Positions 4,488-57,781 are shown, numbered from the stretch's first letter. The stretch is 64,000 nucleotides of DNA from Candidatus Doudnabacteria bacterium (GCA_963768175.1 CAVYGQ010000001.1:840717-904716); one strand, 5' to 3'. Numbers and translations are program-made. Notes: a model not told the origin generated them from the letters alone.

Positions 4488-4766
4488 CTACCAGTTTTTA
4501 TCCGGCGCTTCCAAACCAAAAGCCGCTTCTATAAAATCGTATTCCGCCTTAAGCTTGTCGCGGTATTCTTCCAGTTCGTTTTTTTGCTCGCCTTCGGCCT
4601 CGTACCATTCGTCATAGGAATTTTTTAATTCGTCATCAATCTCCTGCAGTCTCGCGTAGGCTTCGGCTTCTCCCTGCGGGCCCTGCTCCGCCCATTCCTC
4701 GTAGCTCATGCCGAGCGTCTTTTTGTATTTATCATCGTATAGGCTTTGTATGTCTTCTTGGTCCAT
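4488..4766 (-). CDS. Hypothetical acidic protein (92 aa)
   Basis: An ORF rich in E, D and Y with no recognisable domain. Confidence 0.4.
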   Translation of the reverse strand: MDQEDIQSLYDDKYKKTLGMSYEEWAEQGPQGEAEAYARLQEIDDELKNSYDEWYEAEGEQKNELEEYRDKLKAEYDFIEAAFGLEAPDKNW

Positions 4767-4924
4767 AGAAAGTTATATGATACGGATATACGGATTAAAT
4801 ACTGATGATACGGATAATACAGATATCCATCAAGACGTTGCCTGACAGAATCCGTATTATCAGTTTCATCCGCATGTATCAGTATATCAGTATCTCCAAT
4901 TAGTTATTATCTCTACCTATTTTA

Positions 4925-4992
4925 CTCTAAATCTCCAAAAAAGAAAAACCCTCTATGTATTGCCAAGGCCGTCGGGCCTGTTTGGCAATAGA
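4925..4992 (-). terminator. Rho-independent terminator for the dipeptidase operon
   Basis: The long inverted repeat ccctctatgtattgccaa...ttggcaatagaggg is followed on the minus strand by a T run. Confidence 0.6.
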
Positions 4993-5212
4993 GGGTCTTT
5001 CCGAAAAGTCAAAAGAAGCTTTTTGTAAGCCGAAAGATTTACCTTGCGGCCCATCGCCTTATAAATAAAGGCGATATACATCCTGACGAATCAGGATTGG
5101 TTAAAAAACTTTTAGTTGTTTTTTATTTTGGTTTCTTCTGATGAAGAACTAACTTTTCTATACTAAGTATAGCAAATTTTTAGGCAGTTGTCTAGGGCCC
5201 TGACCCGGCATT

Positions 5213-6199
5213 TTATAGCCTGCTAACTATTTTTGCCACGTTTCCATACATAATGCCGTAAATTTCATCATCCGTTAGTCCTGCTATTTCCGAGAGCTGT
5301 TCCGCAATAACCGACAGTTTTCCAATCTCATCAAACTCTTCAAAGAGATGTTGGGCGTCAAGCCCGCCGAAATCGGTCCCGATTGCCGAATATTCTGTTG
5401 AACCGGTTATATCACCGGCTTGTTTGTATGTTTCTATATAATTTTTGAAAGTTGGGAAAAAAGGATTTGCTGGCGTGAACCCGACCACTCCGCCGCGCTT
5501 GGCGATTTCTTTAAGTAATTCGGGAGTGATTAACCGCTGTTTTTCCGAACCCAGGCCGGTGTGGGTGGTGACAATTTTATTATAGTTTCGTACGCGCTCC
5601 AAAATATCGGCAGTAGTTTTGTGGTTGGCATGGGCGGTGTCTATTATCATTTTCAGCTCAACAAGCCGGTCAATTACTTTTTTTCCAAGGTCGGTCAAGC
5701 CCCTGTTTGGATCGCCTGACGAACCTCCGCCAAGCAGGTTGTCGTGGGAGTAGATTGGCCCAACTGACCTGACGCCGCGCGCATACAATTCGTCAGCTAT
5801 ATCGGGCGCAGTAACAATATCCCCGCCTTCTAAATGCAGGATGATTTGTTCTTGGCTGTAAGGCTGATTTTGCAAGCGTAAGTCTTGCGGTCGTGTAAGT
5901 ACTTTAAAGTCTTCGGTTGATTGGTAGTAATCGATCAACCTATTATATTCGTTGCGCACGCCTGCCAATACAACTTCATTTCCGGTTAAGGCGGCTTGTT
6001 TTATCTCCGTATTTGCCCGGCGGTAGATGGTGGCAAAATGCAAGTCTAGCAGTCTTAAGCCTTCGCGCGGCAATTGTTTGCCTCGTTCTTTGGCATGGGC
6101 AAGTTCGGGGTTGTTTAAAATTTGGCACAGCCAGGGATTGAGCCGGTCTTGGTGGAAATCCGCAGCGCGAAAATTTTTACCTTCCTTGGTGTTTAACAT
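5213..6199 (-). CDS. Membrane dipeptidase, peptidase M19 (renal dipeptidase) family
   Basis: An M19-like region (GLTDLGKKVIDRLVELKMIIDTAHA) and a 328 aa length. Confidence 0.6.
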   Translation of the reverse strand: MLNTKEGKNFRAADFHQDRLNPWLCQILNNPELAHAKERGKQLPREGLRLLDLHFATIYRRANTEIKQAALTGNEVVLAGVRNEYNRLIDYYQSTEDFKVLTRPQDLRLQNQPYSQEQIILHLEGGDIVTAPDIADELYARGVRSVGPIYSHDNLLGGGSSGDPNRGLTDLGKKVIDRLVELKMIIDTAHANHKTTADILERVRNYNKIVTTHTGLGSEKQRLITPELLKEIAKRGGVVGFTPANPFFPTFKNYIETYKQAGDITGSTEYSAIGTDFGGLDAQHLFEEFDEIGKLSVIAEQLSEIAGLTDDEIYGIMYGNVAKIVSRL

Positions 6200-7141: not shown

Positions 7142-8601
7142 AAATTGTTAAAGGTAATGCTGGCTAAATCGTTGAAATTTATGGTTTTCTCGAGTTTTTT
7201 TGCGGGCGGGATATATTTGGACGAGATATAGTCGTAAATATCGGCGGCGCCGGTTTTAAAGAAGTCGCCATATTTCATACTCACCGCCGCTTCAAGATAC
7301 TTTGGACTTAAAGGCCCGTCACAAAATATATCATGCGCGTATAAAGCCTTAAGCTGTCCGTCAAAGCGCCTGAAAAAAAGCGCCATACCGGCAACCAGCC
7401 CGGAGGTGTCAATGTTTTTAATAAGCGGGATTTCTTCCATAAAGGCGGAATGTTCAAGCGTTTTTAGCCATGCATTTTTAAACAGGCTTAAATAAATTGC
7501 GGACCCGTAGCCGGTTAGCGGACGCACGCCGGAGTAAAAATTTAACATTGAAAAAATCGAAAACAGGCTCGGGTAAATTTCTTTTTCCGCTAGCTTCTCC
7601 ATTATAGAACCCTTGTCCATATGGATTTTAAGATGTTCAAATCTGCTGTCGGCGGGAATCAGATATTCTCCTTGAAGGTACATGCGTAAAGAACGAGGCT
7701 GCCCGGGGTACTTTCTCCAGAAAAAGTGGGTGCCCTTTCCTTCTCTTTCCCGCCAGGTGATTATAATTCCTCGAAAGTTTTCCAGTATTTGATCCCGGAA
7801 AGGCTTATCAAAATAAGCGGCGGTTATAAAATTGTCTTCTTTTAACAGTTCAAGCAGACATTGGGTAGTAAGTTCTTCCTGGGTTATATAGAGCAAGTCC
7901 GGCAAAGTGGGGCGGGAGGCCTCGGGAAACAACAGTGGCCAGGTTTCTTTCACAATGACGGTAATTTGGTCGGCGTAGTCTTTGCATCTGTCAAAATTGA
8001 TTGATGAAATAAAGGTGTTAAAATCTTGTAAGAACTTTTGTTCTCCTTTAGTGAATTCATGCCATTGGTGGCTGATTTTAAGTCTGGCGACAAAATCAAA
8101 ATCTCTTTTTGTAATATAATAAGAGCAATGTTCCCGTTCGGCTACGCTAAAAAGGGGAACGTGCTTTCCATGCAGACAAAAGCCGCTTTTCCCGAAATAA
8201 TTATTGGGGGGCACATCGCCGCTGGAGACGACGATGGTGGCGTCCGCTTTTTCCTTTTGGAAAAATTTATTGACGCTGCTTATAACGTTGGCAGACAATA
8301 AAAACGGGTGGTTTAGTATCTGGTGATGGTCGGCAATATTGAAAGCAAGGGAATTTGCGAAGTTAATTTTTAATTTTTCTTTTGCATTGCCGCCGAACAA
8401 CCCTTCAAATTTACGGGTGATTTTATTTTTTAGCAGCTCCTGCCGTTTAAGGTGTAGAGCCGGAGTTTTAAAATTATATAGCCCGTCCGAAAACTCCCTG
8501 ATGCTTAATGGCATTTCAAAATATTCCCGGTAAAGCGGCGCATAACGGGTAATTTGGGAGATTATTTGGTCGCGCTCTTTTAAAATTTTAGCTATTTCCA
8601 T
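7138..8601 (-). CDS. Hypothetical protein of 487 aa with no recognised domain
   Basis: A long uninterrupted ORF, coupled to the ATP-grasp gene by a 4-nt overlap. Confidence 0.5.
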   Translation of the reverse strand: MEIAKILKERDQIISQITRYAPLYREYFEMPLSIREFSDGLYNFKTPALHLKRQELLKNKITRKFEGLFGGNAKEKLKINFANSLAFNIADHHQILNHPFLLSANVISSVNKFFQKEKADATIVVSSGDVPPNNYFGKSGFCLHGKHVPLFSVAEREHCSYYITKRDFDFVARLKISHQWHEFTKGEQKFLQDFNTFISSINFDRCKDYADQITVIVKETWPLLFPEASRPTLPDLLYITQEELTTQCLLELLKEDNFITAAYFDKPFRDQILENFRGIIITWREREGKGTHFFWRKYPGQPRSLRMYLQGEYLIPADSRFEHLKIHMDKGSIMEKLAEKEIYPSLFSIFSMLNFYSGVRPLTGYGSAIYLSLFKNAWLKTLEHSAFMEEIPLIKNIDTSGLVAGMALFFRRFDGQLKALYAHDIFCDGPLSPKYLEAAVSMKYGDFFKTGAADIYDYISSKYIPPAKKLEKTINFNDLASITFNNL

Positions 8602-10622: not shown

Positions 10623-11357
10623 ATGCAAGATAAGTTTGGCGGAAAAGAACCAAAGTATTACGATATTTTTACTGGTTTGTTTGTGGCAATATTGCTGATT
10701 TCAGAAATTACCTCTACAAAAATTGTGTCTTTGGGGTTTATCCAAACAGCAGGCGCCGCGGTGCTGTTCCCTATCTCTTACATTTTTAGCGATATTTTAA
10801 CCGAAGTTTACGGCTACGCCAGAGCCAGGCGCGTCATGTGGATCGGCTTTGCGTCTTTGGTATTGCTTTCAGCAATCTTAATTATTGTCCAGTATCTGCC
10901 GCCGGCGCCCTCCTGGCACAACCAGGCCGCTTACGACGTGATTTTGGGTGTTGTGCCCAGAATTTCCTTTGCCAGCGTGATAGCTTATTGGGCCGGCGGT
11001 TTTGCCAACGATTTAGTCTTGGCCAAAATGAAGCTTTTGACCAAGGGCAAATATTTGTGGACGCGCACCGTGGGCTCCACCGTGGTTGGCCAGGCCGTGG
11101 ACACTTTTTTGTTCCTTAGCATCGCGTTTTATGGTACCTTGCCCAACGCGGTTATTTTACAAATTATCTTCAGCTTTTATTTGTTTAAGTGCGGTTATGA
11201 AGTCGTAGCCACCCCGATTACTTATTTTGTGGTCAATAAATTAAAAAAGGCCGAAGGCCTGGATGTGTTTGATTACCATACCAATTTCAACCCTTTCAAG
11301 TTCAAGGTTGAAAATTCGGTAGACCAAGGGGCATCCTTGGACCCGGAACAATCTTAG
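10623..11357 (+). CDS. yhhQ: Queuosine precursor transporter (YhhQ/DUF165 family)
   Basis: A multi-TM protein carrying the SDILTEVYGYARARRV motif typical of DUF165/Vut transporters. Confidence 0.7.
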   Translation: MQDKFGGKEPKYYDIFTGLFVAILLISEITSTKIVSLGFIQTAGAAVLFPISYIFSDILTEVYGYARARRVMWIGFASLVLLSAILIIVQYLPPAPSWHNQAAYDVILGVVPRISFASVIAYWAGGFANDLVLAKMKLLTKGKYLWTRTVGSTVVGQAVDTFLFLSIAFYGTLPNAVILQIIFSFYLFKCGYEVVATPITYFVVNKLKKAEGLDVFDYHTNFNPFKFKVENSVDQGASLDPEQS

Positions 11358-11375
11358 ACCAAGGATGCCCCTTGG
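11324..11375. terminator. Perfect 17-bp inverted repeat (CCAAGGGGCATCCTTGG / CCAAGGATGCCCCTTGG) between convergent genes
   Basis: Seen directly in the sequence. A related copy lies at 57743-57781 after rnhB. Confidence 0.7.
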
Positions 11376-11377
11376 TA

Positions 11378-12795: not shown

Positions 12796-12872
12796 GGGCT
12801 AGTAGCTCAGCTGGTTAGAGCACGTCTCTTATAAGGACGGGGTCGATGGTCCGAATCCATCCTAGCCCACCA
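12796..12872 (+). tRNA. tRNA-Ile (anticodon TAT)
   Basis: Cloverleaf with acceptor GGGCTAG/CTAGCCC, anticodon loop CTTATAA, a GATGG/CCATC T-arm and an encoded CCA. Confidence 0.6.
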
Positions 12873-12901: not shown

Positions 12902-13132
12902 ATGGCAAATAAACCAAAGCCGCTCGCAAAATGCACTAGGTGTGGAAAAAGTACAACAGACGTGCGTTTGGTGAACCAGAGATGCCCAATTGTTTATAAA
13001 AAGGGTGGTAGATGTAAGGGTGTATATAGAAGTTTTATAATGCCTGGAGATTGGAAAAAATGCCCAGATTGTTTAGGAGAGAATAGTGAATGTGAGACTT
13101 GCCACGGGGCAGGTTGGCTTTCAACCAGATAA
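12902..13132 (+). CDS. Small zinc-ribbon protein (8 Cys, 76 aa)
   Basis: Paired CxxC motifs (CTRCG, CPDC, CETC). Confidence 0.5.
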   Translation: MANKPKPLAKCTRCGKSTTDVRLVNQRCPIVYKKGGRCKGVYRSFIMPGDWKKCPDCLGENSECETCHGAGWLSTR

Positions 13133-13159
13133 ATAGTAGAGCATCTTGGTACGTTTAAA

Positions 13160-13192
13160 AAAACTCCGGCAGTTGCCGGGGTTTTTTCTTTT
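13160..13192 (+). terminator. Rho-independent terminator
   Basis: Hairpin ccggcagttgccgg followed by ggttttttctttt. Confidence 0.7.
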
Positions 13193-13219
13193 CACTAAGC
13201 ACTTAGCACTAATCACTAA
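13193..13219. repeat. Heptamer tandem repeat (CACTAAG/CACTTAG)n, the reverse complement of (GTGCTTA)n at 61898-61936
   Basis: cactaagcacttagcactaatcactaa lies immediately 3' of gyrA. Confidence 0.7.
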
Positions 13220-13220
13220 T

Positions 13221-15686
13221 TTAAATTATCGTCGCACTCGCCACTTTATCTCCCTCATCCAGCCTCATTACCCTTACGCCTTGGGTGGCGCGGCCTAATG
13301 TGGAAACTTTGTTCAGTGGCGTGCGGATGGTTTGGCCGGATTTGGAAATTATGACCAAGTCGTGCTCTTCACTGTTGTTTAAAATATGCATGCTGACAAT
13401 TTTCCCGGTCTTGGGCGTAACTTTTACGGTTTTAATGCCGCTGCCGCCGCGCTTTTGCACTTTATAATACGACGCTTCGGTTTTTTTACCCAAACCGTTT
13501 TCCGTAACCACCAGAACTTCCAGAGTTTTTACATCCACGCTTTTGCGGATAATATCCATGCTGATAATCTTGTCGTCTTTTTTCAGGCGCATGCCGGTAA
13601 CGCCGCTGGCGTTTCGGCCCATGGCCCGGACGTCCTTCTCGCTAAAGCGGATGGCTTGGCCGTTTTCCGTGGACAGCATAATTTGGTCTTCGCCACTGGA
13701 GGTTTCCACCCACTTTAATTCATCGGCGCCTTTTAGGGAAATAGCTATCATGCCGCTGCGCCGTACTTTACTGAATTCGTCGCGGCTGGTTTTTTTAATC
13801 AGTCCGTTTTTGGTGGCCATAACCAGGAATTTGGCGTTGTCTTTTTTGGAAAAAGTAAGCACGGCTTGCGAAGTCTCGCCGCTTTGCAGCTGCAGGAAAT
13901 TCACCAAAGCCTGGCCTTTGGAAACGCGCGTGCCCTCGGGTAGCTCGTAAACTTTGGTCTGGAATACCCGTCCTTTGTTGGTGAAAAAGAGAATATCGTC
14001 GTGGGTATTGGAAGAAATAAGCTTTTCCACCACGTCTTCTTCTTTTAAGGTTTGGCCGATCACGCCTTTGCCGCCGCGGCTTTGGGTTTTGTAGGTGTCC
14101 GGCGCCAGGCGCTTGACATAGCCGGATTTGGTAATGGTAATAATTACGTTACTTTCCGGAATCAGATCTTCGGCAGAGAAGCTTCCAATGGCATTTTTTA
14201 TTACTTGCGTCCGGCGTTCGTCGCCAAAGCGAGACTTCATATCTTCCACCTCACTTCTAATAATTCCCAAAATTTTCTTCTTGGATTGCAAAATACCTTC
14301 CAATTCTTCTATTAAATTCTTTTTTTCTTTTAATTCGTCGTCAATTTTTTTACGCTCCAGGCCGGCCAAAGTTTGCAGGCGCATTTCCAAAATCGCGTCC
14401 GCCTGGATGTCCGTGAGCTTGAATTTTTTGATTAAATTGACTTTGGCTTCTTCCTTGGTGGGTGATTTTTTGATGGTGTTTATAACCTCATCAATACGGT
14501 CCAGGGCTTTTTTTAAGCCTTCCAGAATGTGGGCGCGTTCTTTGGCCTTTTTGAGTTCAAATTCCGTGCGTTTGCGCACCACAATTTCGCGGTGCTGCAA
14601 ATATTTTTCCAGGACAGTTTTTAAATTCAGGACATGGGGCTCAATGCCGTCTACCAAAGCCAGCATGTTCATGTGGAAAGATTCCTGGAGTTGGGTGTAG
14701 GAAAACAGCTGGTTTAAAATTTTGTTGGGCAACCCGTCTTTTTTTATGTCTATGACAATGCGCACGCCGTCTTTGTCGCTTTCGTCGCGTACGTCGCGGA
14801 TGCCTTCTATTTTTTTATCGCGGACCAGTTCGGCAATTTTTTCAAGTAAGGTGGCTTTGTTCACGCGGTAAGGAATCTCGTGGACCAAAATTTGGTAAGC
14901 GCCGGATTTGCTTTCTGTAATTTCCGTTTTGGCGCGCATCACAATACTGCCTTTGCCCGTGGCATAGGCGTTCTTAATGGCCGCGATGTCGTAAATTATG
15001 CCGCCGGTGGGGAAGTCCGGTCCCTTAACAAATTCCATTAGGTCTTCGGTAGTGGCTTCCGGGTCGTCAATTAGTTTAACAATGGCATCGCAAATTTCGC
15101 CTAAGTTGTGGGGCGGGATGTCTGTGGCCATGCCTACGGCAATGCCGAGCGTACCGTTAAGCAACAGATTAGGCAGTTTGCCCGGCAAGACCACTGGCTC
15201 TTTGCGTGTGGCGTCATAGTTGTCGCGCCAGTCCACGGTTTCTTTATCCAAGTCTACCAACAATTCTTCGGCCAAAGCGGACATGCGGGCTTCGGTGTAA
15301 CGCATGGCCGCGGCGCCGTCGCCGTCCATGGAGCCAAAGTTCCCCTGTCCGTCTATTAGCGGATAGCGCATGGCAAACAGCTGGGCCATATGGACCATGG
15401 AGTCGTAAACCGCAATATCGCCGTGGGGATGGTACTTGCCCAACACGTCTCCGACTACGGCCGCGGATTTGCGGAATTTGACGTTGTGGCGCAGTCCCAG
15501 TTCGTGCATCACGTATAAAATGCGCCTGTGCACGGGCTTTAAGCCGTCGCGGACATCCGGCAGGGCGCGGCTGACAATTACGCTCATGGCGTAATCCAAA
15601 TACGATTCCTGCATTTCCGTCTGGATGTCGCGCTGCTTGATTTCCCCGATGTCGGTGCTAAGTTCTGCTTTGGAATCTTTAGGCAT
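13221..15686 (-). CDS. gyrA: DNA gyrase subunit A
   Basis: [27 protein letters not shown] motif with C-terminal beta-pinwheel repeats. The start is refined to the ATG at 15684-15686; the track start at 15701 is a TTG. Confidence 0.93.
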
Positions 15687-18648: not shown

Positions 18649-18891
18649 TTACATTCCGGCCGGTTTGTTCGGCATCATAGGAGACGATGACGAACACGAT
18701 TTACAGTTGGCTTTGTGGGTGAATAACTCGTAAAGAGCGCCGAGGCCTACGAGCACATAAACAATTCTGGCAAGCGTTTCGCCAAGGTAAGTTACGACAT
18801 TAACACCAAACAATCCGACTATCAGCCAGACCAGCCCTCCAATTATAACCAGTATCCAGGCAATCATGTGTAGAGCTTTCATGTTGTTCAC
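18649..18891 (-). CDS. DUF378 family membrane protein
   Basis: MKALHMIAWILVIIGGLVWLIVGLFG...ARIVYVLVGLGALY, which is the DUF378 signature. Confidence 0.7.
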   Translation of the reverse strand: MNNMKALHMIAWILVIIGGLVWLIVGLFGVNVVTYLGETLARIVYVLVGLGALYELFTHKANCKSCSSSSPMMPNKPAGM

Positions 18892-19169: not shown

Positions 19170-20558
19170 TTACCATCCGAACATTTTTCCGACCTCTTCC
19201 GACGTTTCACGGCGCCGGGCGATTTTAATTTCCCCGTTTTGGGCAATTAGCTTGGCCGGGGAAGACAGCAGGCAGTGGTGCGAGGCCAGGGAGTCTTGGT
19301 AGGCTCCGGTATCTAAAAATGCGATAAACAGTTCGTCTACATCTCCAAGGCGCGGAAGCAGTATATAGCCGCCGCCGGAGGTGTATTTGTCGTCGCTGTC
19401 GCAGGAACTGCCGGCCAGCCAGACCTTCTCGAGTTTTTTGGTTGTCATATTGTTGACCGGAATTACGTGCCATTTTTGGTGGATGGCCCAAGTATCAATT
19501 AAGTCATTCATAAAGCTGCCATCTATAACGTACCATTTGTTGTTGCCTTTATTGGTCACGGTTTTTTCGGCCAAGATTTTGTAAATGGTAATTTGCGCCG
19601 GCGCCGCAACATACCTGCCCCATTCGGCAATTAGATTGGGATGTCGTATGCCCAGTTTTTCGCTGTGGTTTTTTGCCGTTTTTACTAAGGCATGAATTAA
19701 ACTTTTGGCCGAGTAAAAATGTTTTTTCTTTTCGTAAGGCACGCCCGCCCCGCCGCCAATATCCAAAGTATCCAGTCCCGGATTTTTTTCCTTCAGCTTG
19801 GCGTAAAGTTCCAGCGCGCGCTTAAGCGGTTTGGCCATGCCGTCAATTTTTTCTATCTGGCTGGAAATGTGGTAGTGCAAAACCGAGAGGTTGCGGACTT
19901 TCCCCAAATCCAAAAGTTCTTTTTCCGTAAAGCCGTAACGGTTAAATTTTTTATCCCAATGGCTGTTGACTTTAAGGTCTAAATTTACGCGCACGCCCAT
20001 CTCGCCTTTGAATTTGGACATGTGTTCCAGTTCCACATAATCTTCTATAATCGGGATAACAATTAACCCTTTGGCTTTTAGCTCGTCAATTAATTCAATA
20101 TATTTGGGGGTCTTGGGGCCGTTACAAATAACGCGGATTTTGGAATTAAATTTATCCTGCTCTATCATCCTTTTAACTAAAAACAGCTCATTAGCGCTTG
20201 CTACGTCCAGGTTGGCGCCTTCGGCTACCGCCGGCAAAACAATTTCCTTGTTTTGGTTGACCTTCATGGCGTAGTGGTAGTAAAATTTGCCGCGGTAGCC
20301 CAATACTTTAATGTAGGCGTTAAAGGTTTCAATAAGGTCGCGCACGCGGCTTTCAATAACGGTGGGAAAAACAATTTCCGTTGCCGTGCCGTATTTTTTT
20401 ACAATATCAAAAATATTGTATTGGAAGTTCCCCTCCCTTACAATCAACTCGCCGTCCGGAGAAATGTCGAACATCTGGGTGTTGTATTCTTCAATGCCCA
20501 AACGCCAGAATTTTTTAGAGTCATTCTTTTTTTTCTTTGCTCGAGCTGTTGGGGTCAT
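19170..20558 (-). CDS. speA: Biosynthetic arginine decarboxylase-like PLP (fold III) enzyme
   Basis: SpeA-like N-terminus (YNTQMFDISPDGELIVREG) and an alanine-racemase-fold decarboxylase core. The start is taken at the ATG at 20556-20558; the track start is a GTG at 20597. Confidence 0.7.
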   Translation of the reverse strand: MTPTARAKKKKNDSKKFWRLGIEEYNTQMFDISPDGELIVREGNFQYNIFDIVKKYGTATEIVFPTVIESRVRDLIETFNAYIKVLGYRGKFYYHYAMKVNQNKEIVLPAVAEGANLDVASANELFLVKRMIEQDKFNSKIRVICNGPKTPKYIELIDELKAKGLIVIPIIEDYVELEHMSKFKGEMGVRVNLDLKVNSHWDKKFNRYGFTEKELLDLGKVRNLSVLHYHISSQIEKIDGMAKPLKRALELYAKLKEKNPGLDTLDIGGGAGVPYEKKKHFYSAKSLIHALVKTAKNHSEKLGIRHPNLIAEWGRYVAAPAQITIYKILAEKTVTNKGNNKWYVIDGSFMNDLIDTWAIHQKWHVIPVNNMTTKKLEKVWLAGSSCDSDDKYTSGGGYILLPRLGDVDELFIAFLDTGAYQDSLASHHCLLSSPAKLIAQNGEIKIARRRETSEEVGKMFGW

Positions 20559-20577
20559 ACGTGCGATTAGGTTGGAA

Positions 20578-20680
20578 GAGGACTGTCCTCTGGCCACAAT
20601 TAATATCGTTTAATAAATAATAGCTTGGTATTTATAGATCATTTTCTAAAATTATCAGTCTCTGCCAGAGGACAGTCCTC
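20578..20680. promoter_or_regulatory. Pair of near-identical 13-bp palindromes (GAGGACTGTCCTC and GAGGACAGTCCTC) about 90 bp apart, upstream of speA
   Basis: Seen directly at 20578-20590 and 20668-20680. Confidence 0.5.
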
Positions 20681-20688
20681 GTCATCAA

Positions 20689-21867
20689 TTATTGGTTAAT
20701 GTGTACTACCTTGGCCACCGGGAAGCCATTAAAGTCGGTGGCCGAGGCTAAAGTATAGGCGCCAATGTTTTCCGCGTAAAGCAAATCGTCAATCTGTAAA
20801 TCCTCCGGCAGTTCGTCTGCCAAGGAAATCGTATCAAACGCATCGCAGGTCGGACCGAAAGTTGCGCAAACTTTCAAATCGCCGTCCTTAAAAGAATGAA
20901 GCGGGTAATGCTGGTGGTCGTAAACCTGGCCGGAGAAAGTATGGTACACGCCGTCATCTAGATAATAACAGGTCTTGCCATCACGGATAGATTTGCCGAT
21001 AATTTTGGTAATCAAAGTGCAGGCCGTGGCAACCATAAATCGTCCGGGTTCGGCAATAACTTGAATATTGTCTTTTCCAAACAAGCGCTTTATTTCCGAA
21101 TTCAGTTTTTTGGCAAGTATGGTAAAAGATTTGGCGTCAGAGTCGTATTTTACCGGAAAGCCGCCGCCGATGTCCAAAACCTTTTTTCTCTTTTTCTCTT
21201 TGTCTAGAAAACCGATTTCAAACCCGCGCAGTTGCGCTTCTTTAAAAATTGAAGAGCAGATTTGCAAGGCTTGAATGTAATTGTCAAAATTATTGCATTG
21301 GCTGCCGACGTGGAAACTGATGCCTTCCACGCCTAGACCTAAATTAATGGCTTCCGCAATCAAATCCACCGCTTCGCCCGGATGCGCGCCGAATTTGGAA
21401 GACAGCTCTACCATGCTTCCGGTATTGGGGACGCGTATTCTTAATATTAAACCGACATCGGGGGCATGCTGTTTGATTTTTTTCAGCTCCTCTATGTTGT
21501 CAAAGGTTACCAAAATTTTATAAGGGTTAAGTTTGGTCAAAACTTTAGCCGGCTTAATGGTATTGGCATAGATTATTTTGTCCCAAATAAAATCCTGTCG
21601 CTCTTTTTCCGGCCAGTCTTCAATGTGCTTATAAACCAATTTGAATTCAAAAATGGAGGCCACGTCAAAGCTTGAGCCCATATTGAACATGGTCTTGATA
21701 ATCTCCGGATTGGAGTTGGCTTTAACTGCGAAATATAGTTGCACGTCCGGCAGTTTTTCTCTAAATTCTTTAAAATTTTGCTTTAAGATTTCGTGGTCAA
21801 CCACGAACAACGGGGTACCATTTTTAGCTGCCAATTCTAGCAAAAGTTTTTTGCGTTCTTGGGTCAT
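20689..21867 (-). CDS. Fold-III PLP decarboxylase (ornithine/lysine/carboxy(nor)spermidine decarboxylase family)
   Basis: A lysine in YFAVKAN for the PLP Schiff base, a GGGFPV motif and 392 aa. Confidence 0.7.
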   Translation of the reverse strand: MTQERKKLLLELAAKNGTPLFVVDHEILKQNFKEFREKLPDVQLYFAVKANSNPEIIKTMFNMGSSFDVASIFEFKLVYKHIEDWPEKERQDFIWDKIIYANTIKPAKVLTKLNPYKILVTFDNIEELKKIKQHAPDVGLILRIRVPNTGSMVELSSKFGAHPGEAVDLIAEAINLGLGVEGISFHVGSQCNNFDNYIQALQICSSIFKEAQLRGFEIGFLDKEKKRKKVLDIGGGFPVKYDSDAKSFTILAKKLNSEIKRLFGKDNIQVIAEPGRFMVATACTLITKIIGKSIRDGKTCYYLDDGVYHTFSGQVYDHQHYPLHSFKDGDLKVCATFGPTCDAFDTISLADELPEDLQIDDLLYAENIGAYTLASATDFNGFPVAKVVHINQ

Positions 21868-21904
21868 TAGAAAGTTAATAACACTTTTAATTATTCACGC
21901 TTTC

Positions 21905-22459
21905 TTAGAGTATCTGATGATTTTTTGACAAACTTAAACCATGCGATAACAACCAGGCCTCAACCTCTTTAGCTATTTTTTCGCTCATCCAATAACCCCT
22001 GGAAAGAGCAGCAATATCGGTTTTGGTAAGATCTTCAATAGTTTGAATGTTTGATCGTTTTGCCGTGGTATAAAAAGAGTTCGTGGCTCTAGTTCTTGAA
22101 AGCTTAATTATTGTCACTGGTTGTTTTAACAATTCTTGCTTAATATGTATCTCATTTTCTGCTATACGTTCTGCTTCCTTGTCTAATAAAGGTTTAAGTT
22201 TCCTAATCTCCGGATTAGTTTTTTCGTTTCGAGAAAGATCGCGAATAGGTTTTTCAATTTCAGCCATGGTTTCAGCTGTAATTGGATCTTCCACTTGGTT
22301 TATTCTTCTCTCTATTTCTTCGGAGCGGCGTTGAGTATTTTCAGGATTCACGAAATACCCTTTCTTATTATCATTCCCGCGAAAGCGGAAATTAGATTCC
22401 CGATCAGCTTTGGAATGACATAATGATAATAAATTATGGAATAAACCTAAAATTCTCAA
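21905..22459 (-). CDS. Hypothetical protein whose C-terminus resembles an RNA polymerase alpha-CTD-like HhH domain
   Basis: The C-terminal segment NIQTIEDLTKTDIAALSRGYWMSEKIAKEVEAWLLSHGLSL resembles an alpha-CTD. Confidence 0.4.
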   Translation of the reverse strand: MRILGLFHNLLSLCHSKADRESNFRFRGNDNKKGYFVNPENTQRRSEEIERRINQVEDPITAETMAEIEKPIRDLSRNEKTNPEIRKLKPLLDKEAERIAENEIHIKQELLKQPVTIIKLSRTRATNSFYTTAKRSNIQTIEDLTKTDIAALSRGYWMSEKIAKEVEAWLLSHGLSLSKNHQIL

Positions 22460-23924
22460 ACTGCCAAACGTCCGCGGCCGGTTTGCTGGCCGGGTTTTCT
22501 TTGAAGTAGATTTTACGATTCTTTAGGGGCGTCCAGTCAGACGGCGTGGAAATAAAGTCGCCGAGATAAGGTTTTGCAATATCCAGCACAAAATCGTGCG
22601 GCAAGTCGTCAGGCAGGCAAATACCTTTTTTCGGATTTTCAAACATCCATAGTACGGCGGCAATTACGCCTAGCGCGACCTGTAAAGTGGTGGCATTTTG
22701 GCCAGGTGCCAGCCTCCGGGCTTCCTGTATGCTTAAATCGCTCCCTGTCCACCAAGAATTATACCGATGCCCCATCAGTAGCGCGCCTAAAATGTCCGCC
22801 CCGGAAGTAATCTCATCTTCCAAAATTCTTATCTTGGACTGCATTTCGTAATTCCTGCCGCGAAGTTCGCATAAAGAAGATAGTGTTTCGTGGCACGGCA
22901 TATACGCGTAATGCACTGTCGGGCGGTAAACTGCCCTATCTCCATCCCAAACTGTTAACCTGTCGGATAACCCAAATGCTTCGCCGTGGCGAATGACCAT
23001 GCCCACAATTTCTTCGTTGGGAATCCATGACCTTACCCAGGTATTAATTCCCATTTGGGAGAGCATAATCTGATTTTTTGGCCCGTAAGGCGGAATATTA
23101 GCCAAGTCCGGTAGCCTTTGTTCGTGTGTGCCCCAACCCATCTCGGCCGGCGCGGTTCCTTCTTCCCGCAAGCCTTCCACGCTCCAGGTTCCTACAAATT
23201 CATCAACTTCTTTTGGGCGATTGGTAATTTGCGTGTCGCGCTCGCTGCAGTGGATTACTTTGATTCCCAATTTTTGTCCGAGCAAATTGAATTTGAGGTT
23301 TTTAATATAATTTTCCAGTTCTTCCCTGTCTTTGCCAGCCACTTTTTTATCTGCGATTGTTTTATTGCCGATATCAATCAATCCTTGTTTGACAAAATGG
23401 GAGATCAAACCGGGGTTTGCGCCATGGTCCACGACTGCCGTAGTGGCGTCTTTCCAGTCTTTGGACATGTCGTGCAGTTTCATTTGGCGCCAGTAAAGCG
23501 ATTTTTCAAATGGGCTGTCAGTAAATAATCCCTTAATGGAATCCCAGATTTCAACCGAAGTATTTACATACAAAACATTATGGTCGTGGCACCAGCCGAT
23601 AATATCATTAGCACCAATATTCCATGCCAAATCTATAATCAGGCCGCCCTTGTCTGTGTATTTGGCCAACTCCGGGCCTAGGTTTTCCGGCGTAATCCTG
23701 TTGCGTACAAATTTGATGCCCTTGTCCGTGAATTTTTTTAAAGCCGCTGCTTTGTCTTCAAAATCCATTACCGTGACGTTTTTTGGGTCAACCTCAATTT
23801 TTTCCAGCAGAATCGGCAGGGTGCACTGCGACACCGCGCCATAACCGATAATCAAAATTTTGCGGTCAAACTTTTTTTTTCCGCCGGAGGCGGATCCGCC
23901 TTTAGCGGACATACGTTTTTCCAT
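22434..23924 (-). CDS. hss: Homospermidine synthase / saccharopine-dehydrogenase-family enzyme
   Basis: NAD-binding N-terminus (ILIIGYGAVSQCTLPILLEK) and 496 aa. An in-frame AKGGSASGG cassette sits near the N-terminus. Confidence 0.55.
   Translation of the reverse strand: MEKRMSAKGGSASGGKKKFDRKILIIGYGAVSQCTLPILLEKIEVDPKNVTVMDFEDKAAALKKFTDKGIKFVRNRITPENLGPELAKYTDKGGLIIDLAWNIGANDIIGWCHDHNVLYVNTSVEIWDSIKGLFTDSPFEKSLYWRQMKLHDMSKDWKDATTAVVDHGANPGLISHFVKQGLIDIGNKTIADKKVAGKDREELENYIKNLKFNLLGQKLGIKVIHCSERDTQITNRPKEVDEFVGTWSVEGLREEGTAPAEMGWGTHEQRLPDLANIPPYGPKNQIMLSQMGINTWVRSWIPNEEIVGMVIRHGEAFGLSDRLTVWDGDRAVYRPTVHYAYMPCHETLSSLCELRGRNYEMQSKIRILEDEITSGADILGALLMGHRYNSWWTGSDLSIQEARRLAPGQNATTLQVALGVIAAVLWMFENPKKGICLPDDLPHDFVLDIAKPYLGDFISTPSDWTPLKNRKIYFKENPASKPAADVWQFENFRFIP
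23880..23903. repeat. 24-nt palindromic cassette AAAGGCGGATCCGCCTCCGGCGGA (in minus orientation) in frame in hss
   Basis: Identical 24-mers occur at 44773-44796 (murA) and 53990-54013 (murF). Each encodes KGGSASGG. Confidence 0.85.
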
Positions 23925-24167
23925 ATTAAACTTAGATTTAGGGGTAAAAAATAAAAAGACAAACCCTTTTTGAGAATTTGCCTATAATGAACTAAGCCAT
24001 TGGATTGACTTGCAGGTTTCAGATGCGTTAGCCGTGCGAATGTCTTTTCTGTTCACCTCTCTATAAAATATTAAATATTACACCTAATTTAACATCTGCA
24101 GCCGGGTTTGTCAAATCTTGATTTAAAAGCCGATTTCAAGTAAAATAAAAAAGCTATTTACTGATTT

Positions 24168-40876: not shown

Positions 40877-40962
40877 CAGCCAATGTGTTCAAAAACCGGC
40901 GGTTGTTCGGCGTTAGGAGGCGCGCGAACTACTGACCGGTTTTGTTTTGGCAGAATTGTTTA

Positions 40963-40994
40963 CTTGCTAAACTCACGGCCGTGAGTTTAGCAAG
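40963..40994. terminator. Perfect palindrome CTTGCTAAACTCACGGCCGTGAGTTTAGCAAG (a family member is at 60009-60040)
   Basis: A 14-bp stem lying between convergent genes. Confidence 0.65.
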
Positions 40995-40995
40995 T

Positions 40996-43455: not shown

Positions 43456-43989
43456 ATCTAAGCTATTGTAGCACTAGTTATGGCTTGCGTTCAAATGATA
43501 AATTGTATCATTATCCTTTATCTTTTATCCTTGACAACCTTCGCTTGGTAAAGGATAATGGATAAAAGATTAAAGATAAATTTATTATGTCCAAAAAGCA
43601 CAAAAGAAGCGATTACCAAATACCCCAGCAAGCCGGTATTTCCCATGCCGCGGAATACCGCATTATTAAGTTTGATTTGGTAAAAGTGGTAATTTTAAAC
43701 CTTGTTTATTTAGCGGTTATTTTGTCGTTGTATTTTGGCAACCAGCATACGCATTTTTTGGATAACTGGTTTGCGAAACTTCTCCATTTCTAGTTTATCT
43801 TTGAACAACGGGCATCATTGGTCTTAGAAATATTTCAATCCAATGGTGCCCGTTGTTACCTTTTGTTATAGACGCCCCATAATGGGCGGGTTTTGTCATA
43901 TATGATATAAAGTGGATAATTTTGGTTGACCAAAGGGCAAAAATTTGCTAAAATTGTAATACATATATCACATACGATAGTTTCCCTTT

Positions 43990-44094: not shown

Positions 44095-45648
44095 ATGCAA
44101 AACCTTATAAAGGATCAGCAGAAAATCGGCCAGTTTATAGCCGAAGTCCGTGAGCTTAAAGGCTTTACCCAAAGCCAGTTTGCCAAAAGCTTAAAAACCA
44201 GCCAGTCAGCCGTAGCCAGGATGGAAAGCGGCCAGCAAAACTTAACTACAGAGATGCTGGCTAAGATTAGCGCAGTTTTGAACCATGAAATTATTACGTT
44301 GGCCGACAAGTCGGTAAATTTTAAAATAGAAGGCGGGCGGAAACTTTCGGGAAGGGTCGCGGTTAATACTTCCAAGAATGCCGCGGTGGCGCTGTTGTGC
44401 GCTTCTTTGCTTAATGAAGGTAAAACTATTTTTAAGAATGTGCCTAAAATAGAGGAAGTCTACCGGGTAATTGAAGTTTTGGTCAGTCTTGGCGTCTCGG
44501 TAAAATGGCAGGGCGCGGATGTGGAAATTTTGCCGGGCAAAAAAATTACCATAAATAAAATAGACAAAGAAGCCGCGGTTAAAACCAGAAGCGTTCTTAT
44601 GCTGCTTGGGCCTTTGGCTCATATTCTTCCCGCTTTTAACCTGCCTTTGGCCGGCGGCTGCAAACTGGGCGAACGGACCGTGAGGCCGCATTTGTTTGCT
44701 TTGGAAAAGCTTGGAGTTAAAATTCAGACCCATCATGACCATTACGCCGTAAGCTCGGCTAAAGCTCCCGCCAAAGGCGGATCCGCCTCCGGCGGAAAAA
44801 CCGCGGAGGTAGTGCTTTACGAAATGGGTGACACAGTGACGGAAAACACGCTTATGGCCGCGGCAAAAATAAACGGCGTGACCACCATCAAGCTGGCCTC
44901 TTCCAATTACATGGTGCAGGATTTATGTCATTTTTTGCAAAGTTTGGGCGTAAAAATTGAAGGCGTGGGTACCTCCACCTTAAAAGTGCATGGCAAACCG
45001 CACATTAACCAGCGTGTGGTCTTTTATTTAAGCGAAGACCCCATAGAAGCCATGCTGTTTTTGTCTTTGGCTGTCACCACAAATTCTTCCATAACCGTTG
45101 AGCGCTGCCCCATAGACTTTTTGGAGCTGGAACTGTTGAAATTGGAAAAGATGGGGTTTAAGTACCGGATTATTAAGCGTTATAAAAGCCATAACGGTAT
45201 TACCAATTTGGCAGATATTAAGACTTTCCCGTCTAAATTAATCGCGCTGGAAGAAAAAATCCACCCGTTGACGTCCTCGGCCGGAATTAATATAGATAAC
45301 CTGCCGTTTTTTGTGCCCATTGCCACCCAGGCCAAAGGCACCACGCTGATTCACGACTGGGTTTACGAAAATCGCGCTATTTACTATTTGGAATTAAATA
45401 AGCTGCGGGCCAATATAATTTTGGCCGACGCCCACCGCGTTTACATAGACGGCCCGACCGAACTTAAAGCAGGCGAAGTCATTTGTCCCCCTGCCCTGCG
45501 CCCGGCCGCGATAATTCTAATTGCGATGTTAGCCGCCAAAGGCACCTCTATTCTCCGCAACGTTTATTCCATAAACCGCGGCTATGAGAATTTGGTGCAG
45601 CGATTACAGAAGCTCGGAGCCAAGATCGAAATGATACATGGCATGTAA
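44095..45648 (+). CDS. murA: UDP-N-acetylglucosamine 1-carboxyvinyltransferase fused to an N-terminal XRE-type HTH domain
   Basis: Residues 1-65 form an HTH_3 domain (IGQFIAEVRELKGFTQSQFAKSLKTSQSAVARMESGQQNL). The MurA core follows (KLSGRVAVNTSKNAA...). An in-frame AKGGSASGG cassette is also present. Confidence 0.85.
   Translation: MQNLIKDQQKIGQFIAEVRELKGFTQSQFAKSLKTSQSAVARMESGQQNLTTEMLAKISAVLNHEIITLADKSVNFKIEGGRKLSGRVAVNTSKNAAVALLCASLLNEGKTIFKNVPKIEEVYRVIEVLVSLGVSVKWQGADVEILPGKKITINKIDKEAAVKTRSVLMLLGPLAHILPAFNLPLAGGCKLGERTVRPHLFALEKLGVKIQTHHDHYAVSSAKAPAKGGSASGGKTAEVVLYEMGDTVTENTLMAAAKINGVTTIKLASSNYMVQDLCHFLQSLGVKIEGVGTSTLKVHGKPHINQRVVFYLSEDPIEAMLFLSLAVTTNSSITVERCPIDFLELELLKLEKMGFKYRIIKRYKSHNGITNLADIKTFPSKLIALEEKIHPLTSSAGINIDNLPFFVPIATQAKGTTLIHDWVYENRAIYYLELNKLRANIILADAHRVYIDGPTELKAGEVICPPALRPAAIILIAMLAAKGTSILRNVYSINRGYENLVQRLQKLGAKIEMIHGM
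44773..44796. repeat. 24-nt palindromic cassette AAAGGCGGATCCGCCTCCGGCGGA in frame in murA
   Basis: Identical to the copies in hss and murF. Confidence 0.85.
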
Positions 45649-52819: not shown

Positions 52820-54403
52820 ATGGACTTGTTTGTTCCAAAATTTATCCAATACCAATTATACCTGCTCCAGCTGGAAAATTATGAGCTGGGAAGGTATTGG
52901 AAATTGCTTATAAAAAAGGGAGTTTTCCCTAAAAAAAGCCAACCTTTGCGCAAAGAGCTGGTCTGGACCGCTAAAGCTCGGGCGTTAATGCTTATGGCTG
53001 TGGCCCTGCATGGTTTGGTGGTCGTTTTGGTTGGGCTTATGGTTTTAACTTTAAAGCCGGGCATAGATAACTTTTTTACCACAATAATTTTGGCGGTATT
53101 AATTTTGTTGCCGTTTTATTTTGTTTTTTTCAGTCTGGCTTTGTTAATCCTTAAGCCTTTGGACACTCTGGTAAAACAAAGCCTTGTGGCTAAAGCCAAA
53201 ACCAAGCTGGCTGGATTGCCTGATGTCAAGATAATCGGCGTTGCCGGCAGTTACGGCAAAACTACAATGAAGGAAGTGTTGAGGGCAGTGCTAAGTGCTA
53301 AGTTCAAAGTGCTAAGTACGCCGGAGAGCATAAACACGCCGGTGGGGATTGCCAGATGGATTATAAATAAAATAACGGACGAAACCCAAATTCTGATTGT
53401 AGAAATGGGGGAGCATTATGAGAAAGACGTTAAAGAAATTTGCGATATAGCAAAACCCGACATCGCGGTGGTTACCGGCATTAACGAATCCCACTTGGAG
53501 CGGATGAAAAAAATGGATACGGTTATTGCCACAATTTTTGAAATCGTGAGTAACGCCCAGCCCGGCGCGGCTATTGTGCTAAACGGCGATGATCGCAGGG
53601 TTATGGAGAATTATAAAAAATTTGTCTGGCCAGACCATCGGCTGGAATTTTTTACAAAAAATCCCGGCAGTGAAAAGTGTAAAGTGAAAAGTGCAAAGTT
53701 TAACACAGACAAGCTGTGTTGGAATTTAGAGATTGATGATCTTGGCTCGGTAGAACTGGATTTACTTGGGGAATACGCGTTGGGCGACGTTGACGCGGCC
53801 GTGAAAATTGCCAAAAGTTTGGGTATGAGCAATGAGCAAATTATCGCGGGGATCAAAAATATCAAGCCCGTGGAGCACAGGCTCCAGCCGATAAAGTCTG
53901 CCACGAATGTTTTGGTAATAGACGACAGTTACAACGGCAATTCCGACGGAGTAGTGGAAGCCATAAAAGTTTTGTCGCGCTTTTCCGCCAAAGGCGGATC
54001 CGCCTCCGGCGGAGAAGGCCGCCGGAAGATTTATATCACTCCCGGGCTGGTGGAAATAGGCAAAAGTTCCGCCGATATTCATCGCAGTATTGGCAAACAG
54101 CTGGCGGACGTTGCGGATGTGGTTATTTTGATAAAAAATAGCGCGACGGGGTTTATTGAAGAGGGAATCCTCTTAGGGCGTCATTCTGACCCTGAGCGGA
54201 GCGAAGGGGAAGAATCTCAAACTAAGGATAAAGAGATCCTTCGTCCCTCGGATGCACTCGGGGCTCAGGATGACGCCGCTGGTAAGAGACCAAGAATTAT
54301 CTGGTTTAATTCCGCCTTGGAAGCGTACGCGGGGCTAAAAGACATTTTAAAACCCGGGGATGTAATTTTGTTTCAGAACGATTGGGGAGACCAGTATTTG
54401 TAA
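52820..54403 (+). CDS. murF: UDP-N-acetylmuramoyl-tripeptide--D-alanyl-D-alanine ligase with an N-terminal TM extension and two in-frame repeat insertions
   Basis: Mur ligase ATP-binding motif GVAGSYGKTTMKE. Two in-frame inserts are present: the KGGSASGG cassette at 53990 and a palindromic element of about 100 nt at 54177-54277. Confidence 0.85.
   Translation: MDLFVPKFIQYQLYLLQLENYELGRYWKLLIKKGVFPKKSQPLRKELVWTAKARALMLMAVALHGLVVVLVGLMVLTLKPGIDNFFTTIILAVLILLPFYFVFFSLALLILKPLDTLVKQSLVAKAKTKLAGLPDVKIIGVAGSYGKTTMKEVLRAVLSAKFKVLSTPESINTPVGIARWIINKITDETQILIVEMGEHYEKDVKEICDIAKPDIAVVTGINESHLERMKKMDTVIATIFEIVSNAQPGAAIVLNGDDRRVMENYKKFVWPDHRLEFFTKNPGSEKCKVKSAKFNTDKLCWNLEIDDLGSVELDLLGEYALGDVDAAVKIAKSLGMSNEQIIAGIKNIKPVEHRLQPIKSATNVLVIDDSYNGNSDGVVEAIKVLSRFSAKGGSASGGEGRRKIYITPGLVEIGKSSADIHRSIGKQLADVADVVILIKNSATGFIEEGILLGRHSDPERSEGEESQTKDKEILRPSDALGAQDDAAGKRPRIIWFNSALEAYAGLKDILKPGDVILFQNDWGDQYL
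53990..54013. repeat. 24-nt palindromic cassette AAAGGCGGATCCGCCTCCGGCGGA in frame in murF
   Basis: Identical to the copies in hss and murA. Confidence 0.85.
54177..54277. repeat. Palindromic element GGCGTCATTCTGA...CTCAGGATGACGCC (copy C), inserted in frame near the murF C-terminus
   Basis: It encodes GRHSDPERSEGEESQTKDKEILRPSDALGAQDDAA and keeps the reading frame. Confidence 0.85.
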
Positions 54404-57742: not shown

Positions 57743-57781
57743 ACAAGGGGCATCCTTGTGCTGCACAAGGATGCCCCTTGT
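57743..57781. terminator. Inverted repeat CACAAGGGGCATCCTTGTG / CACAAGGATGCCCCTTGTA 3' of rnhB (related to 11324-11375)
   Basis: Seen directly. Confidence 0.7.

Follow-up and report, generated by a model that had tools for sequence, protein, structure and literature searches.

A homospermidine synthase and ornithine decarboxylase gene pair, probably acquired, in front of a resident arginine decarboxylase gene in a Candidatus Doudnabacteria genome, and a hairpin-forming repeat in the spacer between them

Gene content and family assignments

A polyamine gene block lies on a 64-kb stretch of DNA from the ~949-kb genome of a Candidatus Doudnabacteria bacterium (Patescibacteria; GCA_963768175.1, CAVYGQ010000001.1:840717-904716), here called the window. 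It contains four open reading frames (ORFs), all on the minus strand and located where an earlier note on this DNA had placed them: two fold-type-III pyridoxal phosphate decarboxylases, one saccharopine-dehydrogenase-family protein and a small protein of 148 residues (p148). The earlier note also described two palindromes in front of one decarboxylase gene as resembling operators of a dimeric regulator. We consider it fairly probable that a homospermidine module was acquired horizontally and placed ahead of a resident arginine decarboxylase (ADC) gene, and that the supposed operators form one hairpin in the spacer. The pathway module is known, and its genomic setting is new. The locus is mostly ordinary, because the module is well known and the palindromes are the arms of one strain-specific hairpin. 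Coordinates are collected in Table 1.

The 496-residue protein matches structures of homospermidine synthase (HSS) over its full length (residues 18-493; 2PH5 from L. pneumophila, 8e-101; 4PLP from B. viridis, 3e-92), and Pfam assigns it Sacchrp_dh_NADP and Sacchrp_dh_C. These matches bear out the description of a polyamine gene block with a saccharopine-dehydrogenase-family enzyme of about 496 residues. The substrate-binding and catalytic residues listed for HSS (Asn162, Glu210, Trp229, Glu237, His296, Glu298, Tyr323 and Asp361; PMC4725965), mapped through an alignment with 4XQC, are all kept (8 of 8). The sole departure noted is Asp94 of the outer ionic slide, which is replaced by Asn. The protein is predicted to be a bacterial HSS, with production of sym-homospermidine assigned from family membership. 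A route through carboxynorspermidine dehydrogenase and decarboxylase (CANSDH/CANSDC), proposed as the alternative to HSS, was rejected: no CANSDH structure is present among the PDB matches of the 496-residue protein (E ≤ 1e-3), and the 392-residue decarboxylase scores 26 bits with the NCBIfam nspC model, for which the cutoff is 409.

This 392-residue protein is a predicted ornithine decarboxylase (ODC) of the alanine-racemase (AR) fold, with its substrate preference likewise taken from its family. Against the PDB it matches the lysine/ornithine decarboxylases 5GJM (2.5e-64) and 2PLJ (1.3e-63) as well as human ODC (~5e-48). The best match to a diaminopimelate decarboxylase (DapDC) is 6e-29, far below that to 5GJM, and a DapDC or LysA identity was rejected for this protein. 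An arginase-family gene of the speB type was found neither in the block nor among 20 window ORFs tested. The absence of speB upstream is what is expected of an ODC that is a true partner of HSS; otherwise a switch from ODC to ADC would be suspected (PMC13625781).

For the 462-residue protein, scores by themselves do not decide between SpeA and DapDC. NCBIfam gives 193 bits for speA (cutoff 369) and 169 bits for lysA (cutoff 298), neither cutoff being reached, and no match to nspC; the PDB search gives 4e-29 for SpeA and 1e-27 for DapDC. The architecture is more telling. A profile of the family aligns with E. coli SpeA in two blocks (profile 61-328 with SpeA 90-377, and 336-431 with SpeA 480-580), and the four-helix bundle of about 100 residues that lies between them in SpeA (378-479) has no counterpart. 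The KVNQ lysine, HxHxxSQ, the GGG loop, CDSD and GAYQ are invariant in 11 orthologues and align with SpeA. In DapDC the corresponding motif is CESGD, which the family does not carry. In another lineage (L134, 5001-8455) an orthologue of 82% identity is clustered with genes for an arginase-family ureohydrolase and a deoxyhypusine-synthase-family (SpeY-type) protein. Architecture, motifs and this gene cluster tip the call towards an ancestral-form AR-fold ADC-like enzyme and disfavor a DapDC or LysA identity, close as the raw scores are. The suggestion that one decarboxylase is SpeA-like and the other ODC-like agrees with the SpeA profile alignment and the 5GJM match; the alternative of two DapDC or lysA-type enzymes clearly fails for the 392-residue protein and is disfavored for the 462-residue one.

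The ADC start was placed at ATG 20558 and not at GTG 20597 because orthologues are uniformly about 461 residues long. Among the top 120 matches, identities of 74-95% extend over many Patescibacteria classes. Exact look-ups of the window ADC protein and of protein P0001 returned no record. None of the 20 window ORFs tested, in a search that was not exhaustive, encodes an agmatinase, agmatine iminohydrolase (AIH), N-carbamoylputrescine amidohydrolase (NCPAH), SpeY or ureohydrolase.

Table 1. Features in and around the polyamine gene block; positions are those of the window unless a genome is named
Feature	Position	Strand	Description
HSS gene	22434..23924	-	496 aa; predicted bacterial HSS family, including a lineage-specific 16-aa N-terminal extension
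p148 gene	21905..22351	-	148 aa; N-terminal helical region and predicted C-terminal helix-hairpin-helix domain resembling the C-terminal domain of the RNA polymerase alpha subunit; insertion between HSS and ODC
ODC gene	20689..21867	-	392 aa; predicted AR-fold ornithine (or lysine/ornithine) decarboxylase, usual partner of HSS
Inverted repeat	20575..20683	.	The "operator pair": a single inverted repeat, arms at 20664-20683 and 20575-20594, GAGGACNGTCCTC in each, 69-nt AT-rich loop
ADC gene	19170..20558	-	462 aa; short SpeA-type, "ancestral AR-fold" ADC-like; resident, conserved across Patescibacteria
DUF378 gene	18649..18891	-	Small membrane protein; conserved downstream partner of ADC, synteny in L087, L089, L091, L092, L130 and L133
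Promoter	24086..24114	-	TTGACA-17-TAAATT with TG extension; strongest sigma-70-type promoter of the region, 10/12 match, extended -10
Small RNA (sRNA)- or leader-like unit	23945..24085	-	Conserved; variable 5′ part, invariant hairpin, intrinsic terminator
Copies of the sRNA-like unit	24114-23945; L087 ~7700-7880; L089 ~7793-7965; L091 ~7762-7935; L092 ~7800-7972; L133 ~4760-4900	- (window)	
Palindromic element, core GGCGGATCCGCC	23880..23909	.	GC-rich; inserted in frame, encodes the SAKGGSASGG extension of the HSS N-terminus
Palindromic stretch GTCATTCC...GGGAATC...TTTCCGCTTTCGCGGGAATGA	22371..22419	-	GC-rich; HSS-p148 spacer, source of a spurious N-terminus of the small ORF

Insertion of the HSS-ODC pair

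A survey of 80 HSS loci from bacteria and archaea showed HSS followed by an adjacent ODC gene in most of them, including loci from Omnitrophota, Verrucomicrobiota, Planctomycetota, Patescibacteria and several archaeal groups. This adjacency has been described (PMC13625781). The sister genomes (L087, L089/L090, L091, L092 and L133) have a different arrangement, with a hypothetical gene and tRNAs, the sRNA-like unit, ADC, DUF378, S1 (on the opposite strand), lactamase_B and gyrA; HSS, ODC and p148 are missing from all of them. In blastn comparisons the window is collinear with L087, L089, L091 and L092 on both sides (ADC 82-95% identical), and the segment 23974-20534 is without counterpart. L130, the closest relative that shares the gene order of the window, has HSS-ODC-ADC-DUF378-S1-gyrA. 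Its ODC is 90% identical to that of the window, and its HSS-ODC spacer measures 88 nt and lacks p148. An independent assembly of the same organism as the window (L129, 99.95% identity) carries the identical repeat in the ODC-ADC spacer.

These comparisons show the HSS-ODC pair to be a horizontal insertion between the conserved sRNA-like unit and the ADC gene. It is a clean and datable insertion of this module into a Patescibacteria genome, directly ahead of ADC.

In L130 two tRNA genes close to HSS, on its upstream side, flank a LAGLIDADG-like ORF (4617-5288), and gyrA contains an intein (13051-15179). Together these suggest active homing-type elements around that locus.

The inverted repeat in the ODC-ADC spacer

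The sequence GAGGACNGTCCTC occurs exactly twice in the window, at 20578-20590 and 20668-20680, 90 bp apart from center to center, with 0.00 occurrences expected from shuffled sequences. The two copies of GAGGAC-N1-GTCCTC at this distance that the earlier note had pointed out upstream of speA are real, but they are not independent of each other, being the cores of one 20-nt inverted repeat. Each is a perfect 6-1-6 palindrome that can be extended to 7-1-7. The second copy is the reverse complement of the first, including the asymmetric center base (T/A) and the flank TGGC/GCCA. A repeat finder reports 20-nt arms of 95% complementarity with a 69-nt spacer, 109 bp overall. Because ADC starts at ATG 20558, both palindromes lie within the 130-nt ODC-ADC spacer. 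On the transcribed minus strand the repeat begins 5 nt past the ODC stop (20689) and ends 16 nt ahead of the ADC ATG. When folded as RNA it has a dG of -42.6 kcal/mol (z -4.87), and none of 200 shuffles was as stable. A hairpin origin fits better than two independent operators because pairing between the arms continues past the palindrome and takes in its asymmetric center base. The palindromes are the two arms of one strain-specific, hairpin-forming inverted repeat.

The repeat is not conserved. The copy search covered the 64-kb window, with the remaining ~885 kb of the genome outside it, and gave no further palindrome even when 3 mismatches were allowed. In 93 related loci (1.5 Mb, L130 not among them) the palindrome was also absent. 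Recurrence at other promoters, which a regulon would lead one to expect, was thus not seen as far as the available sequence allows. The ODC-ADC spacer of L130 lacks the repeat despite the same HSS-ODC-ADC order, no such palindromes occur in front of those ADC orthologues of relatives that were examined, and the sequence behind ODC in 14 donor-like cassettes shows nothing related. Metagenomes scanned for the paired palindrome yielded 34 contigs, all of them unrelated tandem arrays with other flanks and periods, and a viral scan with the 17-nt arm gave one isolated match. At the same position L130 has an equally stable, unrelated hairpin (dG -42.7 kcal/mol, z -3.3), the ends of which, GTCATTGCGAG, recur in six loci. 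Rfam families reach the gathering threshold in the window only for tRNAs; between 20500 and 24200 there are noise matches (E 0.4-7), among them miRNA-like matches on the repeat.

The sister genomes carry a TTGACA-N17-TAtTAT promoter immediately upstream of ADC, at the place where the window has the promoter-proximal arm of the repeat. The two arms bracket an AT-rich 69-nt segment in this promoter position, just ahead of the ADC start, and could in principle be operators by which a dimeric regulator, possibly p148, loops the DNA as at the gal OE/OI sites round a weak spacer promoter controlling ADC. Two perfect palindromes where none is expected would agree with this, as would a near-match to a promoter between them (CTGATA-16-TATAAA) and a DNA-binding-type fold encoded 1.2 kb away. 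However, the near-match was noted by eye and fails the scan criteria, and no minus-strand promoter between the arms passes them. The complementarity of the arms past the palindrome, the lack of recurrence in the window or relatives, and the absence from L130 and from the orthologous ADC upstream regions examined also oppose it. The 90-bp spacing corresponds to ~8.6 helical turns, which places the sites out of phase. An operator function, as suggested in the earlier note, is improbable in our view.

The repeat could also be a terminator or insulator that ends the HSS-ODC transcript and leaves ADC to be expressed separately. Its stability and its position directly behind the ODC stop would suit such a role, and in L130 a promoter-like TTGGAA-17-TATAAC lies between the hairpin of this spacer and ADC. 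Against this, the stem is not followed by a U-tract (UCUUCCAACC) and is not called by the terminator scan, while the 16 nt between stem and ADC ATG leave no room for a downstream promoter. We regard a terminator as quite improbable.

The alpha-CTD-like protein

The small ORF between HSS and ODC had been described as 184 residues long and as ending in a segment resembling the RNA polymerase alpha C-terminal domain (alpha-CTD). The length does not hold. Public records call a protein of 148 residues with a GTG start at 22351, and the extra N-terminus of the longer version runs through a GC-rich palindromic stretch. The resemblance does hold. A profile of the p148 family matches the C-terminal domain of about 50 RNA polymerase alpha subunits (best E 1.8e-7). 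The Pfam family PF03118 (RNA_pol_A_CTD) is matched by 5 of 10 family members, with p148 of the window itself below the cutoff (16.4 vs 23.8 bits). An AlphaFold2 model has a pLDDT of ~90 in the C-terminal half, and Foldseek aligns the model with 1Z3E_B at a target-normalised TM-score of 0.87 and an rmsd of 1.5 Å. The C-terminus of p148 is thus modeled as a true alpha-CTD fold.

Relatives of p148 are rare: a search of 5.8 billion proteins gave 2, and one of 1.8 billion cluster representatives gave 12. The protein is absent from L130 and from all 80 HSS loci. Its sole homologue for which contigs were retrieved (P0002) lies on short contigs beside RadC, DUF932 and Trans_reg_C genes, with no polyamine genes on them. 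The GC content dips to 0.37-0.39 over the p148 segment, and searches against PHROGs and by tblastn against phages gave no matches. We regard p148 as a lineage-specific insertion of the mobile-element type. That it co-evolved with the cluster or the palindromes is not supported: p148 is absent from L130, and its homologue occurs in a RadC/DUF932 context. For the same reasons, and in view of the tiny family, the proposal that the small ORF encodes the cognate DNA-binding factor is not borne out.

The fold itself also speaks against binding to the palindromes. To our knowledge the alpha-CTD fold does not read GC-rich palindromes as a dimer. It binds AT-rich minor grooves and activators, as in 9ZUM and 1LB2, which are among the Foldseek matches. 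That the palindromes are real gal-like repression-loop operators round a weak spacer promoter, read by a dimeric regulator that may be the mobile p148, is very improbable. If it were true, the acquired module would have come with, or enlisted, a control of its own over the resident ADC gene, and p148 would be the first free-standing alpha-CTD-fold protein to act as a sequence-specific operator binder.

The upstream promoter and sRNA-like unit

The promoter at 24114-24086 is the only strong minus-strand promoter found in the scan. Its -35 and -10 elements are invariant in 5 aligned genomes. It precedes an sRNA- or leader-like unit that is found in six genomes, with the invariant promoter TTGACA/TGnTAnATT, a variable part of ~75 nt, an invariant hairpin AAGUCA-N6-UGGCUU (24011-23994 in the window; core CAATGGCTTAGTT) and a terminator (23983-23957) with a T-run and 4 covarying pairs. 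In the window the unit ends 22 nt ahead of the HSS ATG. In the sister genomes, L133 included, it is directly upstream of ADC, often just after a tRNA, and in L130 it is absent. It has no Rfam match. No conserved start codon, reading frame or ORF for a small peptide was detected in it. A riboswitch-like leader structure was rejected, the unit having a variable 5′ part and only a 6-bp hairpin and the terminator. It could be an unrecognised sRNA or leader of the candidate phyla radiation (CPR).

This promoter likely drives read-through into HSS. Because no good internal promoter is present, the four genes of the block are most likely transcribed together from it. No recognisable Shine-Dalgarno sequence precedes the starts of HSS (23924), ODC (21867) or ADC (20558). 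The 5′ region of ADC has a short conserved motif, AACCT / AATC.CA, in common with relatives.

Other palindromic elements

A GC-rich palindrome of ~30 nt with the core GGCGGATCCGCC is present 3 times in the window (23880-23909, 44765-44800 and 53980-54015; 0.13 expected). All 3 copies are within coding regions and in frame, and encode the same peptide (S)AKGGSASGG. The HSS proteins of L130, L001 and L002 lack the SAKGGSASGG extension. The GC-rich stretch at 22371-22419 is similarly missing from the 88-nt HSS-ODC spacer of L130. Nested repeats of CCAAGGGGCATCCTTGG occur at 3 sites (11323-11376, 43804-43857 and 57743-57781).

Some further observations concern such elements. The nested repeats have hairpin arms CCAAGG-GGCAT-CCTTGG and variants in inverted pairs, 1-18 nt apart, at gene ends or between genes; their architecture is that of the GAGGAC repeat, and their sequence is unrelated to it. 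GC-rich perfect hairpins fill spacers in other CPR genomes as well (L087 ~7900-7937, L003 ~8115 and L006 ~3882, besides 22371-22419 of the window). They are of the types TCCGCCGTAGTCCCGCCGCAGGCGGGACTACGGCGGA, GTCATGCCSGA...TCSGGCATCC and GTCATTCC...GGGAATGA, and when translated they yield spurious low-complexity ORF extensions. Two perfect palindromes of 34 bp (40962-40995 and 60008-60041) share the half-site ACTTGCTAAA-N4-CGG / CCG-N4-TTTAGCAAGT and, because they recur, are better candidates for operators or a shared element than the GAGGAC pair. Elsewhere in the window, ARAGORN identifies a tRNA-Ile with anticodon UAU (12796-12872). Such a tRNA is uncommon in bacteria, in which AUA is usually read by a lysidine-modified CAU tRNA.

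Proposed history and expression of the locus

In view of the above, the following sequence of events can be considered. The resident gene would be the short SpeA-type ADC, which by family membership should form agmatine from arginine. HSS and the AR-fold ODC would have been inserted between the upstream sRNA-like unit and this gene. Later arrivals would be the p148 gene, which is of the mobile-element type, and several small GC-rich palindromes. ODC is expected to convert ornithine to putrescine and HSS to join two putrescines into sym-homospermidine with NAD+, again as judged from their families. HSS, p148, ODC and ADC would be read from the promoter at 24114-24086 through the sRNA terminator. 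The 109-bp repeat fills the ODC-ADC spacer, where the sister genomes carry their ADC promoter. If active at all, it would act as an RNA stem-loop between the acquired and the resident cistrons and not as protein-binding DNA, for example as a 3′ stabiliser or as an RNase III-type processing or insulating hairpin.

Several points weigh against this model. Co-transcription and a role at the RNA level are inferred. The leader terminator at 23983-23957 looks efficient and would limit read-through into HSS. Transcription from the weak CTGATA-16-TATAAA in the loop, if it occurs, would include the 3′ arm alone. A simple stem does not require arms that are themselves self-complementary, and the nested palindrome is left unexplained. 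The presence of different hairpins at the same site in the window and in L130 may reflect an insertion hotspot and not structural selection, since the L130 hairpin belongs to a dispersed repeat family. Finally, the search for copies spans the 64 kb of the window and not the whole genome.

The main rival to a functional RNA hairpin, ahead of the operator and terminator readings, is a neutral or selfish palindromic element, comparable to a REPIN (a hairpin-forming doublet of repetitive extragenic palindromic, REP, sequences) or a miniature inverted-repeat transposable element (MITE), or else an artefact of replication or repair, that settled in a permissive spacer and is functionless as DNA and RNA. 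Small palindromes abound here, with GGCGGATCCGCC in frame three times, CCAAGGGGCATCCTTGG at three sites and GTCATTGCGAG hairpins at six loci including the L130 spacer, and the repeat is strain-specific. Two inverted, self-palindromic arms ~70 nt apart are also the layout reportedly described for REP doublets by Bertels and Rainey in 2011. REPINs and MITEs are multi-copy, however, whereas the repeat is present once in 64 kb and is missing from the 1.5 Mb of related loci. Its ends show no target-site duplication, and no gene for a REP-associated tyrosine transposase (RAYT) or IS200-like protein was noticed, although no systematic search for one was made. A neutral insertion would moreover still fold in a read-through transcript. 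We hold a neutral element to be possible but doubtful, and favor the RNA hairpin between the two cistrons.

The reanalysis removes a false regulatory lead, since what had been taken for operators is one strain-specific hairpin, and the supposed regulator is an unrelated insertion. The sRNA-like unit and the in-frame palindromic insertions may outlast the original operator finding in interest.

Comparison with known systems

The repeat shares with REP doublets, REPINs and MITE-like repeats the inverted, internally palindromic copies of ~20 nt at a distance of ~70 nt, the intergenic position and the long hairpin. It differs from them in being single-copy as far as visible, and in having neither a target-site duplication nor an identified RAYT transposase. 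With the looping operators OE and OI of GalR it has in common two palindromic sites at a comparable distance (~90-115 bp) that flank an AT-rich region of promoter type. Unlike these operators, the window sites are exact reverse complements, flanks included, and out of phase, and no regulon, conservation or repressor was identified for them. The GGCGGATCCGCC element is reminiscent of the Rickettsia palindromic elements in its in-frame insertion into genes.

Free-standing alpha-CTD-like proteins are encoded by uncultured tailed phages (BFVD "RNA polymerase, alpha subunit, C-terminal", 111-135 aa). They have the same helical N-terminus followed by an alpha-CTD fold as p148, which is also found in a context of mobile-element type. 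In contrast to them, p148 belongs to a tiny family, and no homologues of it are detected by sequence among phage records or PHROGs.

The pair of HSS and ODC resembles the known module of hss and AR-fold ODC (Shaw et al. 2010; Li et al. 2026, PMC13625781) in the position of HSS immediately upstream of ODC on the same strand, in the catalytic residues that are kept, and in a patchy, horizontally transferred spread over phyla and archaea. It departs from the known module in that the pair is split by the 148-residue gene, in the in-frame palindromic extension of the HSS N-terminus, and in its junction, in a Patescibacteria genome, with the upstream side of a resident ADC gene.

The 462-residue protein is SpeA-like without the four-helix bundle and with CDSD and GAYQ kept, which is like the ancestral AR-fold form of ADC (Burrell et al. 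2010, as summarised in PMC13625781). In the published agmatine route to homospermidine, ADC is followed by SpeB and SpeY. The window ADC, assigned its activity from sequence, instead adjoins the putrescine/HSS genes, and its orthologue in L134 is partnered with the agmatine/SpeY route. A 2026 study calls the two routes mutually exclusive. Given the L134 cluster, the same ADC family adjoins one or the other of them depending on the lineage, and the window genome and L130 are a natural place to ask whether ADC was kept for another purpose after the gain of HSS and ODC.

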